A stretch of 64,000 nt of DNA from Fervidobacterium sp. UBA5837 (lineage in GTDB: Bacteria > Thermotogota > Thermotogae > Thermotogales > Fervidobacteriaceae), in NCBI GenBank assembly GCA_002432805.1, contig DJGV01000001.1:100218-164217 (forward strand), in the 5' to 3' direction. Positions 1 to 11,022 of this stretch are shown here, piece by piece (the stretch's first letter is position 1; each line of letters begins with the position of its first letter). A program made the position numbers and the translations under genes. The notes beneath the pieces are model-generated. The model had not been told where the DNA came from. It saw nothing but the letters and a program-made list of their open reading frames with translations, and made no database searches.

Positions 1-1
1 T

Positions 2-355
2 AGTACTTTTGCACAATTGGTTGAAGGACAGCTTCAGAACGTTGAAGTTTCCGGAAACAAGAACGATATTGTCAGTGCATCTGTAAATGCGTACAAGAGA
101 GTGACTGAACTTTTTGCACAAGGCAGAGTCTCCGGCGCATATGTCTTTGCAGTTTGGAGAGTAAAGGGTGGAAATATTACAAGCACCTATTCTCTGCTTG
201 TATATGATCCTGGATTAATTGTGAAGATAATCGAACTCGACGCGCAAGTACAACAGGCAGTAGATGAACTTGGAAAACAGGGTGTCAATTTCTTCGAGAA
301 TCTAAACGCCGTCATGCAAGAAGCAACAAAAGGCACACCAATGGAGCAGAAATAG
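2..355 (+). CDS. LPP20/FlgP-like domain protein, C-terminal part (5' end lies outside the window); paralog of 422-1060 and 4393-5049
   Basis: The frame is open from base 2 (STFAQLVEGQLQNVEVSGNK...), so the TTG at 17 is not the true start. It aligns residue-for-residue with aa 100-215 of the 893-aa protein (STFAQLVEGQLQNVQVSGNKSDIVSAS.NAYKRVTELFA.GR.SGAYV). The nucleotide sequences are also visibly similar. Confidence 0.7.
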   Translation, partial: STFAQLVEGQLQNVEVSGNKNDIVSASVNAYKRVTELFAQGRVSGAYVFAVWRVKGGNITSTYSLLVYDPGLIVKIIELDAQVQQAVDELGKQGVNFFENLNAVMQEATKGTPMEQK

Positions 356-371
356 TTATTTCTCTTTGCAT

Positions 372-403
372 CCTCCTGCAAATGCAGGGGGATATTTTCT
401 TTT
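372..403 (+). terminator. Rho-independent terminator or attenuator after the first paralog
   Basis: Stem cctcctgca / tgcaggggg (372-380 / 383-391) followed by atattttctttt. Confidence 0.55.
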
Positions 404-421
404 AGTTGGAGGCGACTAAGT

Positions 422-3103
422 GTGGATAATGTAACCTGGCTTTTGATAGGTGTTTTGTTAGTTGCAGCGATAGGCTTGGGTGCGTTTTTTTTAATGCAAC
501 CACAGGATAAGTGGATAGAGGCAGATGGTGTGAAGGTTTGGAAGATTCCATCGGATGCAGAGATTGTGGAAGTCAACACTGCAAAAGCTGGAGCTGTCAA
601 GAACCTTGCACAGTCTAATAAGTTAATTGCTTTTGTAGGAGAGGCACAGGGAATAGGAACAATTCAAGATCAAGAAGTAGCAAAACTAAGGGCCTATTCA
701 CAGATAGCAGAGCTTTTGAACGCAAATGTCAGCACGTTTGCTCAATTAGTAGAAGGGCAGTTACAAAATGTCCAAGTTTCAGGAAACAAGAGTGATATTG
801 TCAGTGCTTCGACAAATGCTTACAAACGTGTCACAGAACTTTTTGCAGCAGGCAGAATTTCAGGTGCTTATGTGTATGCTACGTGGCAGGCAAAGGAAGG
901 CAATTTGGTGCACACGTACGTTTTGTTGGTTTACGATCCAGAGGATGTGAAGAAATTCATTGAGATGCAGCCAGATATCCAGCAAGCCGTTAATCAACTT
1001 GGGAACCTTGGTGTCGATTTCTTTACCTCACTCAACGGTGTCATAGATCAAGCGATGTTGGGAACTTCGTTAGCACCTGCGGTTCAAACGCCGCAGCAAC
1101 CAGTTCAACCTACTCAACCTACTCAACCTACCCAGCCAATCCAACCAACTCCTTCGTTACCTTCGAACGTTAGTTACATGAAAGGTATTGGAGAGGCATA
1201 TGGTAGTACTGAACTTGAGGCAGAGGAAATTGCAAAGAAAAATGCTCTCACAAATCTTTCAGAACAGCTTTACATTGATGTGCAAACAACTTCAAAGTTG
1301 AACGAACAACTTCTCCAGACAATTTCAAATAACACTGTGAGAGAAACTCTCAACAGAGAGTATCAAAAGACGATAGAAACAAAATCTCAATTTGAGTTTA
1401 TCGATGTTAGATACAATGTTGTTGATAAGAAGAAGGATTCAAGCGGTAAGTATTATGCAAAGGTAGAAGCCTTGGTAGAAGAAGAGAATACGAAGAAAAC
1501 TTTTGAAACATACATATCTTTGAAATTGGCAGGTACACTTTTAGATTCTGGCATGGTATTCACAGCCAAGGGTCTTTTAGATAAGTATGAATCGCTCTTT
1601 TCAAAATACAAGTTTCCACCAAATATATCACAGGAAATTGCATTGATTGTCGGAAAGATAAGGAGTAAGTATGCAGAGATCGATGGAATGGTGAAGAATG
1701 TTAAAGCTAAAGAGATCAAAGATTTCAACGATGTAGTTCAAATCGTAGAATTACTCAATGCGTTGGATGCTGCTGCTTTGGATGTTCCAGATGGTTTAGT
1801 CGATAGAGAAAGGCTTAGACCGTATTTGAAGGATGTGAAAATTGAGCTTTCTGGACCAACAGAAGTACTCATTGGTGAGCAGGTTTCTGTCGAAATAAGG
1901 TCCAGTGCAAATGCTATAACATCCGTGAGGATTATAAACGACAACATCGATGGTCCAAATATTGTTACTTTGAAAGATGGAAAAGCTGTCTTTTCAGGCG
2001 TTGTAAAGGCAATCGATTCAAAGATTACCGTTTCGATAGGTGGATTAGTCAATACAGTTTGGGCACCGGGAAAAGTACTCGTTAATCCAGATGTTGTGAG
2101 AGTGATTTCAAGAGATGGTGATAAGCTGAGAATACTCGCAGGTGGAAGTGCAAAACCTGGTTTAGATACGAAAGTTACAAGAGACAATGCAATCAAAGAT
2201 GCTTTGACAAAAATCGTCAGAAAATCTGCTGCAGAAGTTTTATTGGGACAAGACAAGGATTTGCTTGACGTTCCAATAGACGAATACATAGTGAACAAAG
2301 TCAGCGCAGGTATCGATTATGAAATTACTGCGACTGGGGAATATCAAGGTATATACTTTGCGGTCGTCAGTGCAACAGTTATGAAAGAAAGATTCCAAAA
2401 CGATATACGAGATGCACTCAAAAGTGCACCAAGTGGATTTGCGATGCTGATAGTTGATGGCGATAGTTCAGGTTACATTGAACCCACTATGATTTCGAGT
2501 ATGGTTGATGCAGGGATAAAGCTTGTTTCAAAAGATTTTTCCAAGAAAATACTCGAAGAACAACAGAGATTGGGTTACAATTTGACAACATTGGGAAAAC
2601 TTGCCGCTCTATCCAGTGCAAGATATTTGCTGTATACAAAGGTAACTTCAACTTCAACGTACGTCTCTGACTACAGTGTCTACTCAGTCAGGATGGCGGT
2701 TAGTACACAGATAATCGATTCCATAACGGGTAACATATTAACTGCACCGCAATTTGAAGAAGTTAACACGGGTGCTACCGCACAAGCAGCAGTCTCAAAG
2801 ATTGTCAATGGGCAGAATTTCAAGAACTACGTCCAGCAGGTCATAAACTCGCTGAACTTTGAAAATGTGCAAACGAAGAAGGTCTTTAGATATACTTTTG
2901 TGCTCGAAAGAGCAGTGTATGGTTCGATGCTAATGGATTATTTGAATGCAAAGTATGAGGGGATTAAAGTTATAGAAAAGGCAGATACAAAACTCGTTAT
3001 AGAGGCTAGCGTGGATATGAACACACTTGAAGCGTTCTTCAAGACGATAGATGCACTCAAGATAAAGAAGATATCTGATTACAATTATCAAGTGACGAAG
3101 TGA
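422..3103 (+). CDS. Large membrane-anchored multidomain envelope protein (N-terminal TM helix, LPP20-like modules, PQ-rich linker, Ig-like middle region, CsgG/FlgO-like C-terminal region)
   Basis: GTG start 9 nt after TGGAGG. TM helix WLLIGVLLVAAIGLGAFFL. LPP20-like signatures at GIGEAYGSTELEAEEIAKKNALTNLSEQLYIDVQ and TKVTRDNAIKDALTKIVRKSAAEVLLG. CsgG/LpoB-like pattern at FAMLIVDGDSSGYIEPTMISSMVDAGIKLVSKDFSKKILEEQ...ARYLLYTKV...VRMAVSTQIIDSITGNIL. Confidence 0.75.
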   Translation: MDNVTWLLIGVLLVAAIGLGAFFLMQPQDKWIEADGVKVWKIPSDAEIVEVNTAKAGAVKNLAQSNKLIAFVGEAQGIGTIQDQEVAKLRAYSQIAELLNANVSTFAQLVEGQLQNVQVSGNKSDIVSASTNAYKRVTELFAAGRISGAYVYATWQAKEGNLVHTYVLLVYDPEDVKKFIEMQPDIQQAVNQLGNLGVDFFTSLNGVIDQAMLGTSLAPAVQTPQQPVQPTQPTQPTQPIQPTPSLPSNVSYMKGIGEAYGSTELEAEEIAKKNALTNLSEQLYIDVQTTSKLNEQLLQTISNNTVRETLNREYQKTIETKSQFEFIDVRYNVVDKKKDSSGKYYAKVEALVEEENTKKTFETYISLKLAGTLLDSGMVFTAKGLLDKYESLFSKYKFPPNISQEIALIVGKIRSKYAEIDGMVKNVKAKEIKDFNDVVQIVELLNALDAAALDVPDGLVDRERLRPYLKDVKIELSGPTEVLIGEQVSVEIRSSANAITSVRIINDNIDGPNIVTLKDGKAVFSGVVKAIDSKITVSIGGLVNTVWAPGKVLVNPDVVRVISRDGDKLRILAGGSAKPGLDTKVTRDNAIKDALTKIVRKSAAEVLLGQDKDLLDVPIDEYIVNKVSAGIDYEITATGEYQGIYFAVVSATVMKERFQNDIRDALKSAPSGFAMLIVDGDSSGYIEPTMISSMVDAGIKLVSKDFSKKILEEQQRLGYNLTTLGKLAALSSARYLLYTKVTSTSTYVSDYSVYSVRMAVSTQIIDSITGNILTAPQFEEVNTGATAQAAVSKIVNGQNFKNYVQQVINSLNFENVQTKKVFRYTFVLERAVYGSMLMDYLNAKYEGIKVIEKADTKLVIEASVDMNTLEAFFKTIDALKIKKISDYNYQVTK
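1094..1153 (+). repeat. Tandem 9-nt repeat (caacctact-like, about 6 units) encoding the (QPT/QPV/QPI)n linker
   Basis: cagcaacca gttcaacct actcaacct actcaacct acccagcca atccaacca act, translating to QQPVQPTQPTQPTQPIQPT. Confidence 0.85.
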
Positions 3104-3151
3104 TAACATAGAAATGATAACATAATTGTTTGGATTGGAAGAGGTGATTTC

Positions 3152-4330
3152 ATGAGGTATTCAAAGGCAACAGTTGTAGCGTTACTTTTTATAATAACGT
3201 GTTCCATTTTTGCGGCAGGTGGGATAGCCGTGACTGATAAAATCAGCTTGGTGATTCTCCCTGCAAAAATCGGCAATGGATGGAACATGGATGAGGTAGA
3301 TTATCTGCTCTCTATTATGGAAGAACAAGCTTTAGAACTTGGAAGGTTTCAATTGTTTCCACGTGCTGACCTTCAGCAGATCATGAAAGAGCGGAACATG
3401 TCAGAATTTGGGGTTTCGGATGCGATTGAAATAGGAAAGCTTGGTGGTTCTAAGTACGCATTATTACTTACTTTGACTGAACTTTCCTCCGCATGGAGCG
3501 ATAAATCGAAATCGTATGAAGCAACATCGAGATACACGATCAAACTTTACAATATCGAAAACGGTGAACTGCTGGCTTCCAAGGCAATGGAATCGAGTGG
3601 CAGGTCAAAAGATACAGGTCAAAAAGCAATCACAGATGCACTGAAGTCTACTGTGTCGTCTATATGGCTTGAATTAAGAGAAATATTCAAGTTGGAAGCA
3701 TACGTAAAGTCAGTTAGTGGTAATAATGTTGTCCTTGCTGGAATAGATCCAAAACTCGCACAAAGAGGGTTCATATTTGAGATTGAGACATCGAGCGGCG
3801 GTATCGGATACGTAAAGGTCACAGGATACAACAAGGCAGATGGCACGGTTGTGACTAAATTCATGTACGGCGAGAAACCTATGCAGTATGACATCGCAAC
3901 GGAATATCCAACTCCTGGAATACATGCTGGTCTAGGCATTTCAACATTCTCAGGTATGTTTGGATTGGGAGTAAGCGCATGGACTGATGGTAGTGATAGT
4001 ACAATACCCCTTCCAATTTACGTCGGCGTTGGGACATTTCTTGGATCGATATTGAGTTACACTCCAGCGTATGTAGAGCTGGGAGCTGGATTCAAATTAT
4101 TAGAGATGGGAAGAATTGGAGTACTAGTCAATGGTGGGATAAGCATAATAGGACTCTTTGACTTAGACACATCTGATGTCATTGGTATGTTGTATGGTGC
4201 ATTTGCAGGCGGCATGCTGACTTACGAGTTCAACCCATCGTTGGGGATCTACGGATCTGCAGGTTATTCGATGTACTTAAGCGACGATGGATTATCCGGA
4301 CTCAGCGTACAACTTGGCATCTACTTCTAA
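3152..4330 (+). CDS. CsgG/LpoB/FlgO-like periplasmic domain fused to a C-terminal glycine-rich predicted outer-membrane beta-barrel
   Basis: Signal peptide with a possible lipobox (LLFIITC). CsgG-family pattern at SLVILPAKIGNGW..VDYLLSIMEEQALELGRFQLFPRADLQQIMKERNMSEFG...GKLGGSKYALLLTLTE...YTIKLYNIENGELLAS. The last ~135 aa are alternating Gly/hydrophobic segments ending GLSVQLGIYF, an OMP beta-signal with a terminal Phe. Confidence 0.7.
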   Translation: MRYSKATVVALLFIITCSIFAAGGIAVTDKISLVILPAKIGNGWNMDEVDYLLSIMEEQALELGRFQLFPRADLQQIMKERNMSEFGVSDAIEIGKLGGSKYALLLTLTELSSAWSDKSKSYEATSRYTIKLYNIENGELLASKAMESSGRSKDTGQKAITDALKSTVSSIWLELREIFKLEAYVKSVSGNNVVLAGIDPKLAQRGFIFEIETSSGGIGYVKVTGYNKADGTVVTKFMYGEKPMQYDIATEYPTPGIHAGLGISTFSGMFGLGVSAWTDGSDSTIPLPIYVGVGTFLGSILSYTPAYVELGAGFKLLEMGRIGVLVNGGISIIGLFDLDTSDVIGMLYGAFAGGMLTYEFNPSLGIYGSAGYSMYLSDDGLSGLSVQLGIYF

Positions 4331-4345
4331 GAAATCGTATACATC

Positions 4346-4372
4346 CTAAACAATCTAAACAATCTAAACAAT
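4346..4372 (+). repeat. Perfect tandem repeat (ctaaacaat) x3 immediately upstream of the RBS of the next gene
   Basis: Three identical 9-mers at 4346-4354, 4355-4363 and 4364-4372. GGGAGGTGG follows at 4380. Confidence 0.9.
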
Positions 4373-4392
4373 GAGAATTGGGAGGTGGTCTC

Positions 4393-5049
4393 TTGGATAC
4401 AACCACAATATTACTTGTAAGTGTAGTAATAATAGCCGTTGGCGTTGGAATATTCTTTTTCGCGCTTCCAAGAGAAGATGTTCAGTGGATCATGGCAGAT
4501 GGTATCAAGATTCAAAGCATCTCAAAGGATGCCAGGATTGTTTATGTCAACAATACAATGGAAAAGCGTGTTCGTGAGTTATACCAAAGTGGGACACTAC
4601 TTGCATTCAGGGGAGAAAGTATCGGTGGAGGTATAGATACAGTCAAAGCAAGGGGTAAAGCAAAGACAAATGCGTACAAGGAATTGTCCGAATATTTCAA
4701 TGCGAGGATCTCTACCTTTTCTCAATTGGTTGATGGTCAAATACAATCAATCGCTAGTTCTGGAAAGGCAAGCGCGGAGAGTTTGAAAAGCACAGCCATG
4801 CAGGCATATGAATCGGTAACTGAAATGTTTTCAAGTACAGAAGTATCAGGTACCTACATATATGCCATATGGGAAGAATATGTGGGAAACCTTGTGTATA
4901 CGAACGTGTTACTCATATTTGACCCTGTAGGTGCCATCGAGGCTGTCAAGAGTAATGAACAGATAGCAAAGCAGATAGACGAACTTGGTCAAAACGGTGT
5001 TGATTTCTTCAAAGCATTGAATGGAGTCATAGAGGAAGCAAAGAAATAG
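4393..5049 (+). CDS. Membrane-anchored LPP20/FlgP-like domain protein (third paralog)
   Basis: TTG at 4393 follows GGAGGTGG. Its N-terminus (LDTTTILLVSVVIIAVGVGIFFF...WIMADGIKI) parallels the 893-aa protein (VDNVTWLLIGVLLVAAIGLGAFF...WIEADGVKV). The rest aligns with the paralog module (STFSQLVDGQIQS...YESVTEMF...VSGTYIYAIW...LLIFDP...ELGQNGVDFFKALNGVI). The ORF-track start at 4378 is also possible. Confidence 0.75.
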   Translation: MDTTTILLVSVVIIAVGVGIFFFALPREDVQWIMADGIKIQSISKDARIVYVNNTMEKRVRELYQSGTLLAFRGESIGGGIDTVKARGKAKTNAYKELSEYFNARISTFSQLVDGQIQSIASSGKASAESLKSTAMQAYESVTEMFSSTEVSGTYIYAIWEEYVGNLVYTNVLLIFDPVGAIEAVKSNEQIAKQIDELGQNGVDFFKALNGVIEEAKK

Positions 5050-5108
5050 AGAATGTGTGAGAATTAAGAATGGGTCGGTCTCTTTCTGATATTTCAGATT
5101 GACAAACT

Positions 5109-5134
5109 AAAAGGCGTGCTAAGCACGCCTTTTG
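5109..5134. terminator. Bidirectional rho-independent terminator between convergent genes
   Basis: aaaaggcgtgc taa gcacgcctttt: a perfect 11-bp stem flanked by an A-run and a T-run. Confidence 0.8.
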
Positions 5135-5211: not shown

Positions 5212-6171
5212 TCACTGCACTGTGACGGATTTAAGCAGTGGCTGAATTGGTCCAAAATCTGCAAATGGCCATATTCTCAATATTGGTCTGCCTATGATTC
5301 CACTCTTCGGTACGAATCCAAAGTACCTGCTATCCAGACTTTCCACGGAATTGTCTCCCATGAAAAAACAAAATCCTTTTGGGATTTTTATGTATACTTG
5401 GCCATTTTCAGTCCAGACGTAATCAGAAATGTTTATATTTTGCGGTTTGAGGTATTTCTCTACAACAACTGAATAGTCGATACCATAAGGGACTGGATCT
5501 AGTCCGCCAAGTATACTGAATACCGTATTTGCAAGTTCATTTCCTTCTGTCTGAGCCAACGTAAAGAGGTAAGCACGATATTTCTCTTTATCGTTTTTCA
5601 AAGTAGATGCTTCGATTAGATATTCCCAGAGTTTTGGATATTTGAATATTCCACCAAATTCGTAATTTATGGATGCCAAGTGCTCAGGGATGACACCATT
5701 TACAAAAAGCTTGTAGTTGCTATCAACCTGTTTTAAAGTTAGTACATCGCCTTCCTTACCGACCAATCTTTTGACGTACTTCACTGAACCTTTGAATTGA
5801 CTCGGTGTGAACATATCCATGAATTTGTCAAATGCTCTCAGCATCTGTTGTGCCCTCTCATCTGGAAAAGGTGTGTAAAAGACGACGATCTCACCTATCT
5901 GAGGTTCACGAGCAGAATAGGTGATTTTTTCGACAAAGAGACGATCCCCTACGTTGATCGTGGGGACCATAGACGGTGTGGGAACGAGCATCGTTTCAAA
6001 AACAAATAGTCTTATAATCGTTGCGGCAACAAACGCATAGATAAGAGTTATTATCGTTTCCCTTAGCAAGCTCTTCCCTTTGCTTGTTTTTGTTGCCTTT
6101 GTCGATTTTTGAACGTTACTTTGCTTTTTGTTGCTTTGAAGCTGCTTGTTTGGCTGGTTTTTGGAAGCCAT
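5212..6171 (-). CDS. lepB: Signal peptidase I
   Basis: Catalytic Ser box PTPSMVPTI, Lys box VKRLVG, box [24 protein letters not shown] sits 7 nt before the ATG at 6171. It is unusually long (319 aa) and has a K/Q/S/T-rich N-terminal tail. Confidence 0.9.
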
Positions 6172-6517
6172 TATTTCTCTCCTTGATCTTTACCTTACCC
6201 TTTACGTCTCTTAGATAGTAGAGTTTTGCCCTTCTCACTCTTCCACGTTTTACGACCTCTATCTTATCTATCGTTGGCACATAAAGTGGGAATATCCTTT
6301 CTACACCTATTCCTCCCGATGCAACTCTTCTTACTGTAAATGTTTTACCAACACCAGATCCTCTGATGGAAATAACAATACCTTCGTAGACTTGTATTCT
6401 CTCTTTGTCTCCTTCTTTAACCTTAACGTGAACTCTGACGGTGTCACCGGGTCTGAAATCTGGTACTTCTTTGATTTGCGTTTTTTCCACAATTCTGACA
6501 ATGTTGTCCATACTCAT
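6116..6517 (-). CDS. rplS: 50S ribosomal protein L19
   Basis: [35 protein letters not shown]...[26 protein letters not shown]. The Lys-rich C-terminal tail overlaps the lepB start. Confidence 0.93.
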
Positions 6518-10285: not shown

Positions 10286-10555
10286 CGAATCACCTCGCTG
10301 TTTGATTCACACTTGTTATATCTTACTATATTGAGCCGAAAAATCAATTAAATCACAACGACCCTTGAAACGATTGAGAAAAATATGTGTGAATACTATG
10401 TTTCACATATGATGTGTGTTAACTTAATGCACATGTTAAAAGTTACACTAGTGTAATATACTTGTTCTGACCCGATTTTTTCGTTTCTCATTTGGTGTCT
10501 ATCACTATCTTGCACCCATCATGGCTTTACTTTTGATTTGTAGTGATATAATATC

Positions 10556-10851
10556 ATGTACGCTTGGGCCTTATTCTTCTGTGTTCTTGCAGCGTTTAAC
10601 CAGCGATGTGCTGGTATCTGAATTGCTTAAGAAAACTGGAGGTAATAAAGTGTGGGAGAAGAATTATGGTGGTGAATACAACCAGATTGCTTGCAGGTGG
10701 AATGTACGATGATGTAGGCTATTTTGGTCAACAAACAGGTGATGGTGGATACATTATTTGTGGATATACACAATCTTTTGATTCAACACATCTTGGAGAT
10801 GTTTACATGATAAGAACGGATGAAAATGGAAATACAGGACCAAATCCATGA
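10556..10851 (+). pseudogene. Decayed remnant of a secreted repeat protein; signal peptide and repeat fragments are split over three frames
   Basis: Frame a: MYAWALFFCVLAAFNQRCAGI-stop. Frame b: GGNKVWEKNYGGEYNQ. Frame c: DDVGYFGQQTGDGGYIICGYTQSFDSTHLGDVYMIRTDENGNTG-stop. The W.K.YGG...D.G....QT.DGGYI..GYT.SF pattern is continuous only if two frameshifts are assumed. Confidence 0.4.
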
Positions 10852-11022
10852 CGAATTAGCTTAATATTTCAATACGCAGATTATGTGAGTTAAATTGTAT
10901 TTTATGATGTCTAACATGAAATACACTAGAAACAATTTTAGAAAGCACAGATGATGCAAATTGATGAAATTGAACTTTGCATGTTATAATGTTAATAGAT
11001 TCTAATTGAAGGGTGTGATTTT

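Follow-up and report, generated by a model that had tools for sequence, protein, structure and literature searches.

What might four neighbouring genes for membrane-bound proteins build together in the envelope of a toga-bearing bacterium? The question is raised by positions 1-5049 of a 64,000-nucleotide stretch of Fervidobacterium sp. UBA5837 (contig DJGV01000001.1, positions 100,218 to 164,217), hereafter the window, in which a first-pass annotation made from the letters alone had seen an uncharacterised envelope system of the toga, the outer envelope of the Thermotogae. The placement among toga-bearing Thermotogae agrees with the homologs, which are named Fervidobacterium. Its statement that no function had been described also stands: in the literature on Thermotoga or the toga with CsgG, on Fervidobacterium with LPP20 and on LPP20/CsgG/DUF799 operons we found no description of the cluster or of its families. 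The four proteins have a predicted topology of three inner-membrane-anchored proteins (small A, small B and one of 893 amino acids, aa) and one outer-membrane barrel protein (392 aa). We propose, at somewhat less than an even chance, that they form a Thermotogota-specific oligomeric periplasmic scaffold that would link the inner membrane and the toga. The folds are known ones; new are a module family, a transmembrane-anchored multi-domain LPP20/FlgT-like protein and a fusion of a FlgT/CsgG-fold domain with a barrel. The cluster and the hairpins that accompany it are laid out as follows.

2-355, plus strand: 3' part (117 codons) of small module gene A, carrying module copy 1 (open reading frame, alignment; module hidden Markov model (HMM) E 3e-35)
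370-393, plus strand: terminator-like hairpin with a T-run in the spacer between gene A and the large gene (consensus scan)
422-3103, plus strand: gene of the large 893-aa envelope protein (open reading frame; GTG start, GGAGG Shine-Dalgarno at 408-412)
3152-4330, plus strand: gene of the 392-aa outer-membrane protein (open reading frame; AlphaFold2 (AF2) model, Foldseek, Pfam)
4393-5049, plus strand: small module gene B, carrying module copy 3, with a transmembrane helix and the module and no KGTP tail (open reading frame; module HMM E 1e-76)
5108-5134, no strand assigned: bidirectional intrinsic-terminator-like hairpin between the cluster end and the convergent lepB-rplS-trmD-rimM-rpsP-ffh genes (sequence scan)

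The open reading frames found on the plus strand of 1-5049 are a 5'-truncated one ending at 355, one of 893 aa (422-3103), one of 392 aa (3152-4330) and one of 223 aa (4378-5049), and the earlier calls of the two long frames and of a common strand were right. Gene A is 220-231 aa long in relatives, with an N-in transmembrane helix, the module in the periplasm and, at its C-terminus, a KGTP[LM]E tail; its full-length orthologs (L003:5279-5974, L001:6205-6870 and L005:6980-7642) are 75-93% identical. For gene B the open reading frame finder gives a start at 4378, and we prefer the TTG at 4393, as the first pass did, because a Shine-Dalgarno sequence, GGGAGGTGG, lies at 4380-4388, 4 nucleotides 5' of it, and because the resulting 218 aa match the orthologs (218-230 aa, 58-91% identity). 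The strong bidirectional terminator that had been placed near 5109 was found as a G+C-rich hairpin of 12 bp at 5108-5134, with an A-run on one side and a T-run on the other. The sequence ctaaacaat is repeated three times in tandem at 4347-4372, within the 47-62 nucleotide spacer 5' of the last small gene.

A module of ~190 aa is present three times, at 2-355, 422-~1060 and 4393-5049, and the alignment reproduces the invariant columns of the pattern first noticed. At the amino acid level copy 1 is 64% identical to copy 2 and 42% identical to copy 3, and the module paralogs find one another by tblastn at E 1e-24 to 1e-50. Copies 2 and 3 start, as had been noted, with an N-terminal hydrophobic helix followed by W-I-x-A-D-G-[VI]-K. 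Two details of the first-pass annotation did not hold. Copy 2 had been described as a gene beside the 893-aa protein and is in fact residues 1-215 of that protein, and the duplication of copies 1 and 2, which had been called recent, is old. The two copies share 64.5% of their nucleotides overall and 40% at third codon positions, which are thus near saturation, and both copies are found at five loci (L001, L003, L008, L009 and L012, F. thailandense among them).

An exhaustive comparison of the module profile with 1.84 billion representative proteins gave only 38 clusters at E <= 0.001. The named true members come from Thermotogota only (Fervidobacterium, Thermosipho, Marinitoga, Petrotogaceae and unclassified metagenome-assembled genomes, MAGs), and all are annotated as hypothetical. 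Pfam has no model of this family. Members are ~200-235 aa long and begin with a single helix, often preceded by a lysine/arginine-rich segment, or with a lipobox; the module therefore appears to be periplasmic and membrane-tethered. None of the Fervidobacterium small and large proteins has a lipobox, and their transmembrane helix looks uncleaved; lipoboxes are present in the Thermosipho homolog of the large body and in several distant module proteins.

The module had also been described as LPP20/FlgP-like, and of this claim only a remote relationship survives. The Pfam LPP20 model (PF02169) was matched by none of 27 diverse module sequences at E <= 1, nor by the copies in the window, and the family profile has no relative among the PDB sequences. 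With hhalign the module aligns to the LPP20 domain of the 893-aa protein at a probability of 73% (E 3e-5 over 90 columns, a remote match), the HMMs of the two match reciprocally at E 1e-6 to 0.03, and in the AF2 model both the module core and the LPP20 domain run strand, helix, helix, strand, strand. The core has probably descended from an LPP20/SHS2-type domain. To this core the modelled module adds three N-terminal strands with a helix and three C-terminal helices, a beta-rich extension and a helical end that set it apart from LPP20 proteins such as H. pylori Lpp20 and Campylobacter FlgP. It resembles them in being membrane-tethered and periplasmic, and the Fervidobacterium members differ in having a transmembrane helix in place of the lipobox.

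A K-G-T-P-[LM]-E tail ends copy 1 (window ~326-343), copy 2 (~1064-1080) and many distant members, and is missing from copy 3; the tail of the copy 2 type sits directly before a proline/glutamine (P/Q)-rich linker. By analogy with the C-terminal tail of FlgP, which inserts into FlgT, it could, speculatively, be a docking peptide. Outside Fervidobacterium, neighbourhoods of the module were sampled in the Petrotogaceae, with a single-protein query. The Petrotogaceae have tandem module lipoproteins of 211 and 222 aa, the tail being in the 222-aa one only, and no large or barrel gene was found near the pair. One unclassified Thermotogota MAG has two module members at consecutive locus tags. A neighbour-joining tree of the modules gave no decision on the orthology of A/B pairs across families. 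Divergent module paralogs also lie at other Fervidobacterium loci (P0102/P0137, PL174_04470; P0079, ABDH59_04825), one of them 217 aa long and ~22% identical to copy 3 and another in which the module leads into the beginning of an LPP20-type domain, so that the module family of a genome is larger than the count in the cluster.

What does the large gene add to the module that it carries? Its orthologs are 53-100% identical, and its domains are as follows.

425-1057, plus strand: transmembrane helix (aa 2-24) and module copy 2 (aa ~30-212) (AF2 secondary structure; module HMM E 7e-69; 64% identity to copy 1)
1058-1156, plus strand: disordered P/Q-rich linker, aa 213-245 (predicted local distance difference test score (pLDDT) < 50; variable in length and sequence among orthologs)
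1157-1489, plus strand: LPP20 domain, aa 246-356 (PF02169; strand, helix, helix, strand, strand)
1490-2080, plus strand: helical region, aa ~357-469, and Ig-like beta-sandwich, aa ~474-553 (AF2, pLDDT 86-95)
2087-3100, plus strand: FlgT-like C-terminal unit, aa 556-893 (Foldseek and AF2 secondary structure), comprising the next three
aa 559-654: SHS2-like alpha/beta domain (AF2)
aa 673-810: CsgG/GNA1162-like alpha/beta domain (AF2)
aa 822-892: small alpha/beta domain (AF2)

The LPP20 segment seen in the first pass is real. PF02169 matches the window protein at E 5.7e-5 and 23.9 bits (cut-off 25.9), over profile positions 9-95 of 97 and thus nearly the whole model. All nine homologs match (best E 1.8e-7), the Thermosipho homolog with 26.7 bits lying above the curated cut-off, and among the PDB sequences the domain finds 4kzs, an 'LPP20 lipofamily protein', at E 0.0096. 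The CsgG/FlgT-fold segment was recovered as well, by structure and by weak Pfam matches. Foldseek of the whole model is headed by FlgT (3w1e, E 8e-7 over 386 columns, and 8z5n_0, E 3.5e-6), followed by FTT1539c (4qvr), GNA1162 and CsgG; these searches carried no query coordinates, and we assigned the FlgT-type matches to aa 556-893 from the secondary structure. Antibody Fab matches dominate the same search and probably reflect the modelled Ig-like domain. At the sequence level, the C-terminal third of the family matches FlgT_N (0.0084) and FlgT_M (0.044), both far under their cut-offs, and CsgG (0.16), and the C-terminal unit had no usable match among the PDB sequences.

The second long gene encodes the candidate outer-membrane partner, for which the model (pLDDT 82, predicted template-modelling score (pTM) 0.76) gives four parts.

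aa 1-~22: signal peptide (AF2 helix)
3224-3685, plus strand: alpha/beta CsgG/FlgT-fold domain, aa 25-178 (AF2, Foldseek)
3686-3907, plus strand: small beta domain, aa 179-252 (AF2)
3920-4327, plus strand: 8-stranded beta-barrel, aa 257-392, ending ...LGIYF (AF2, Foldseek)

The terminal barrel that had been predicted is thus present in the model, and it is of the OmpA/OmpX type. It consists of eight long antiparallel strands (257-266, 269-278, 289-297, 303-319, 322-337, 342-361, 364-375 and 383-391) in the last 136 residues and ends in an aromatic residue, the protein having a signal peptide at its other end. Foldseek matches it to OmpA (1qjp), OprF (4rlc), Ail, NspA and OmpX at E 1.8e-4 to 2.5e-3 (TMt 0.52-0.72), and sequence support is very weak, with OMP_b-brl_2 matched by 2 of 24 homologs. 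In OmpA the barrel is N-terminal, whereas here it follows the periplasmic domain, and we found no published account of such an architecture, in which a C-terminal 8-stranded barrel is joined to a FlgT/CsgG-fold domain.

The description of this protein as CsgG-like was right as to superfamily and went too far as to type. PF03783 is matched partially by 23 of 24 homologs (best E 1.1e-7), some Thermosipho homologs have a precomputed match to it, and the NCBI label 'CsgG/HfaB family' stands on some homologs; GNA1162-like Pfam matches occur in 3 of 24. Structurally, the nearest match of the periplasmic part is FlgT (3w1e, E 5e-10 over 286 columns) with the Vibrio LPHT-ring chain 8z5n_0 (E 9e-9), and GNA1162, CsgG and PelC come further down. 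The family has no match to the FlgT profiles PF16548, PF16539 and PF16538, no usable match was found for the protein or its family among the PDB sequences, and NCBIfam gave nothing usable for any of the four window proteins, nor did an exact-sequence look-up for the small protein of the window. On its model the 392-aa protein is a member of the CsgG/GNA1162/LpoB fold group, joined to an OmpA-like anchor.

Could the cluster, given this membership, serve in export or assembly? A surface polymer or fibre would then pass through a periplasmic funnel or an outer-membrane conduit formed by the 392-aa protein together with the CsgG/PelC-like domains, as for curli, the holdfast anchor or Pel. The PF03783 matches and the family names point that way, as do the alpha/beta periplasmic fold with CsgG and PelC among the Foldseek matches and, in Thermosipho, the genes of a VWA lipoprotein and of a Wzy_C protein that lie nearby. 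The defining marks of CsgG are nevertheless missing. The window protein reaches 15.6 bits (cut-off 20.8) and covers no more of the profile than positions 52-102 of 210, roughly a quarter, and the lone cysteine of its signal peptide is not conserved in an alignment of 24 sequences, in which the mature N-terminus reads ...AAGG(I/V)T, so that there is no conserved lipobox cysteine. In the model its membrane part is a separate small, monomeric 8-stranded barrel, and CsgG-type hairpins are absent. A genuine CsgG pore was ruled out on these grounds. OmpA and OmpX barrels have no wide pore, and it is these that the 392-aa barrel matches. The cluster holds no gene for a substrate-like protein, for a CsgA/B/E/F-like or HfaA/D-like protein or for a glycosyltransferase, nor any curli, holdfast or Pel partner gene. 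We consider an export function very unlikely.

The same fold group includes LpoB, and the TolB-N/LpoB-fold domains might, in the manner of LpoB, act from the membrane on cell-wall enzymes, activating or positioning peptidoglycan synthases or hydrolases. Apart from the fold class in common, this idea draws on one homolog that weakly matches PF13036 LpoB (E 0.0062), a single sub-threshold match. LpoB is a small lipoprotein without the extra domains of the cluster proteins, and no gene for a penicillin-binding protein or hydrolase is adjacent; a regulator of cell-wall enzymes is, in our judgement, highly improbable.

FlgT as the best structural match of both large models brings the flagellum into consideration. 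The SHS2-like fold is common to FlgP, FlgT and Lpp20, FlgP and FlgT build outer-membrane-associated rings, and in Vibrio and Campylobacter domains of these types make up the rings or disks that lie beneath the outer membrane (PMC12222027). The cluster could accordingly be read as a flagellar accessory, an outer-membrane-associated disk or H-ring analogue at the Fervidobacterium motor, like Vibrio FlgT/FlgP/FlgO or Campylobacter FlgP. The H-ring (PDB 3w1e, 8z5n) is made of FlgT with lipoproteins that anchor the ring to the outer membrane. The cluster also has an outer-membrane anchor, and its FlgT-fold units stand together with LPP20/SHS2-type domains, the group of FlgP (PMC12222027). To these likenesses can be added the weak FlgT_N and FlgT_M matches and the expression of flagellar genes in F. 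islandicum (PMC13157175). However, the multi-domain FlgT fold is present in both models at the fold level only, with global TM-scores of 0.1-0.3 and a different domain arrangement, and the FlgT_N and FlgT_M matches stay far under their cut-offs. The cluster proteins are much larger and multi-domain, and they are anchored by a transmembrane helix and an 8-stranded barrel rather than by lipidation or as soluble proteins. A beta-hairpin insert in FlgP has been linked to ring formation (PMC12222027); in the AF2 models its position is occupied by helices, aa 123-142 of the module and aa 304-319 of the LPP20 domain, and the FlgP-type hairpin is missing. The same folds serve in the non-flagellar Lpp20, CsgG, PelC and GNA1162. 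No flagellar gene adjoins the cluster at any examined locus, no named module member from Thermotoga or Pseudothermotoga was found, and ordinary L- and P-ring proteins have been reported in Thermotoga (PMC1586193). We regard a flagellar role as unlikely. A replacement for missing L and P rings was ruled out, since FlgH and FlgI have been reported from Thermotoga (PMC1586193).

How firmly, then, do the four genes belong together? The cluster proved to be syntenic in several Fervidobacterium genomes, as the first-pass annotation had asked to be checked. The named sources of the homologs of the three complete proteins are all Fervidobacterium, nearly all of them labelled 'hypothetical protein'. 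The order small (220-233 aa), large (~900 aa), 392-aa, small (218-227 aa) is common to five loci (the window, L003, L008, L009 and L012). At every locus whose downstream flank was seen (the window, L001 and L003-L006) the genes lepB-rplS-trmD-rimM-rpsP-ffh run towards the cluster, and HD / CoA-binding / CBS-HATPase or pyr genes are further neighbours. In all Fervidobacterium large proteins examined except those of L005/L006, and also in the distant P0076 and P0079, module and LPP20/FlgT-like body form one fused protein. In Thermosipho, the gene of the 392-aa homolog adjoins that of a 682-aa lipoprotein which shares 31% identity with the large protein over residues 252-855 of the latter. The Thermosipho japonicus-type locus (L007:4905-12999) encodes barrel paralogs of 416 and 599 aa with barrel-like C-termini, the 396-aa homolog, the 682-aa lipoprotein, a 162-aa barrel and a 350-aa VWA lipoprotein, with the gene of a 1090-aa Wzy_C protein divergent and upstream of the cluster; a trio similar to that of L007 (400, 469 and 660 aa) is found in a Fervidobacterium MAG (L015). 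Because of the gene fusion and of the adjacency that recurs in two genera, we consider the module to be functionally linked to the LPP20/FlgT-like body and the barrel to the large body.

The competing view is that of a loose neighbourhood, in which independent envelope paralogs, for example separate membrane-tethered periplasmic proteins, adjoin by duplication history. The barrel gene is indeed often lost or elsewhere, the module types of Marinitoga litoralis are ~775 protein accessions apart, which suggests that they are not adjacent, the Petrotogaceae pair has neither large nor barrel gene nearby, and a terminator-like hairpin follows gene A. Set against these points are the fusion of module and body in many genomes, the adjacency of barrel and large-body genes in both Fervidobacterium and Thermosipho in spite of the 31% identity of the latter's large body, and the gene order kept at five loci. 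We hold an accidental grouping to be rather unlikely.

Returning to the periplasmic scaffold, the following course of assembly can be envisaged. Small A, small B and the 893-aa protein would each keep one N-terminal helix in the cytoplasmic membrane, with their bulk in the periplasm. The 392-aa protein would be exported by Sec and inserted into the toga by its 8-stranded barrel, presumably via BamA, leaving its FlgT/CsgG-fold domain in the periplasm; BamA and many lineage-specific barrel proteins are known toga components (PMC10160955). A-type and B-type modules may pair at the inner membrane, the long 893-aa protein may cross the periplasm, and its FlgT-like end may bind the FlgT/CsgG-like domain of the barrel protein. 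The outcome would be an oligomeric ring or lattice coupling the inner membrane to the toga, a scaffold or tether and not a channel of the CsgG type. Its building blocks would be domains of the kinds that in other bacteria oligomerise below outer membranes.

Several observations weigh against this proposal. The contacts among the four proteins are all inferred. The AF2 models were built on shallow alignments of 20-24 sequences from one family, and for the 893-aa protein a mean pLDDT of 81 with a pTM of 0.46 makes the domains credible but not their mutual arrangement or packing. The inserts of the SHS2-type domains are helical in the model and differ from the FlgP hairpin that has been linked to rings (PMC12222027). 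The hairpin at 370-393 (a stem of 10 pairs, 6 of them G-C, followed by ATTTTCTTTT) separates copy 1 from the large gene, so that a single four-gene transcript is not certain and gene A may be transcriptionally uncoupled. The members of the cluster are, furthermore, not all constant. In L001 (9669-9955) and L002 (6392-6678) the 392-aa gene is reduced to two fragments in different frames, aa 52-79 and 337-392, lying between the large gene and the small one, which we read as a deletion pseudogene in one Fervidobacterium lineage. The gene is missing from L005/L006, and solo copies of 59-70% identity occur at unrelated loci in F. islandicum and other genomes (L010, L011 and L013). The barrel gene is therefore dispensable at the cluster locus, and the idea of a cluster built around it has to be given up. 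The large protein of L005/L006 (7722-9962, 746 aa) has kept the transmembrane helix and the P/Q linker, the module being gone in what looks like an in-frame loss, so that some lineages can do without the fused module.

A circumstantial observation in favour of a toga-linked role comes from the solo locus of F. islandicum AW-1. There NA23_RS03320 is expressed ~6-fold higher on feathers than on glucose (log fold change (logFC) 2.54, false discovery rate (FDR) 0.014, ~30 vs ~5 transcripts per million (TPM)), and feather-grown F. islandicum cells have expanded toga envelopes (PMC13157175). NA23_RS03320 is a homolog of the 392-aa protein with 66% identity. For the module and the large protein, the F. 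islandicum omics tables, in the truncated form covered, gave nothing usable.

A second relative of the 392-aa protein has left a trace further downstream in the window. Between ffh and the FKBP gene (intergenic 10286-11022), the segment 10602-10848 on the plus strand is what remains of a 738-aa gene, a C-terminal piece with 84% identity to the last 51 aa. In a close relative this gene is preserved whole, at L003:16557-18773, and in the window genome most of it is deleted. The 738-aa L003 protein comprises a paralog of the 392-aa periplasmic half (67% over aa 1-252), fn3 and ~8 YGG/DGGY repeats. Directly beyond the cluster terminator, the lepB open reading frame as listed (5212-6171, minus strand) encodes 319 aa with a lysine/glutamine-rich N-terminus and overlaps the 3' end of rplS (6116-6517); its true start is probably internal to the listed frame, as lepB of relatives is 284-304 aa long.

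What would such a scaffold mean for the Thermotogota envelope? In the sole toga tether described so far, Omp-alpha and barrel proteins connect the toga to peptidoglycan, and a protein linking the inner membrane with the toga is not described in that account (PMC10160955); the cluster supplies concrete candidates for one. In its most specific form, which we put forward as rather doubtful, inner-membrane LPP20-derived modules and the periplasm-spanning FlgT-like protein would dock on the FlgT/CsgG-barrel fusion of the toga in a trans-envelope ring or lattice that controls toga attachment versus ballooning. If true, inner membrane and toga would be bridged directly by protein, with SHS2/FlgT folds that serve elsewhere in flagellar disks as the building material. 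The presence of this fold set, known from flagellar disks, at a non-flagellar locus of a deep-branching phylum bears on how ring-forming parts have been recruited.

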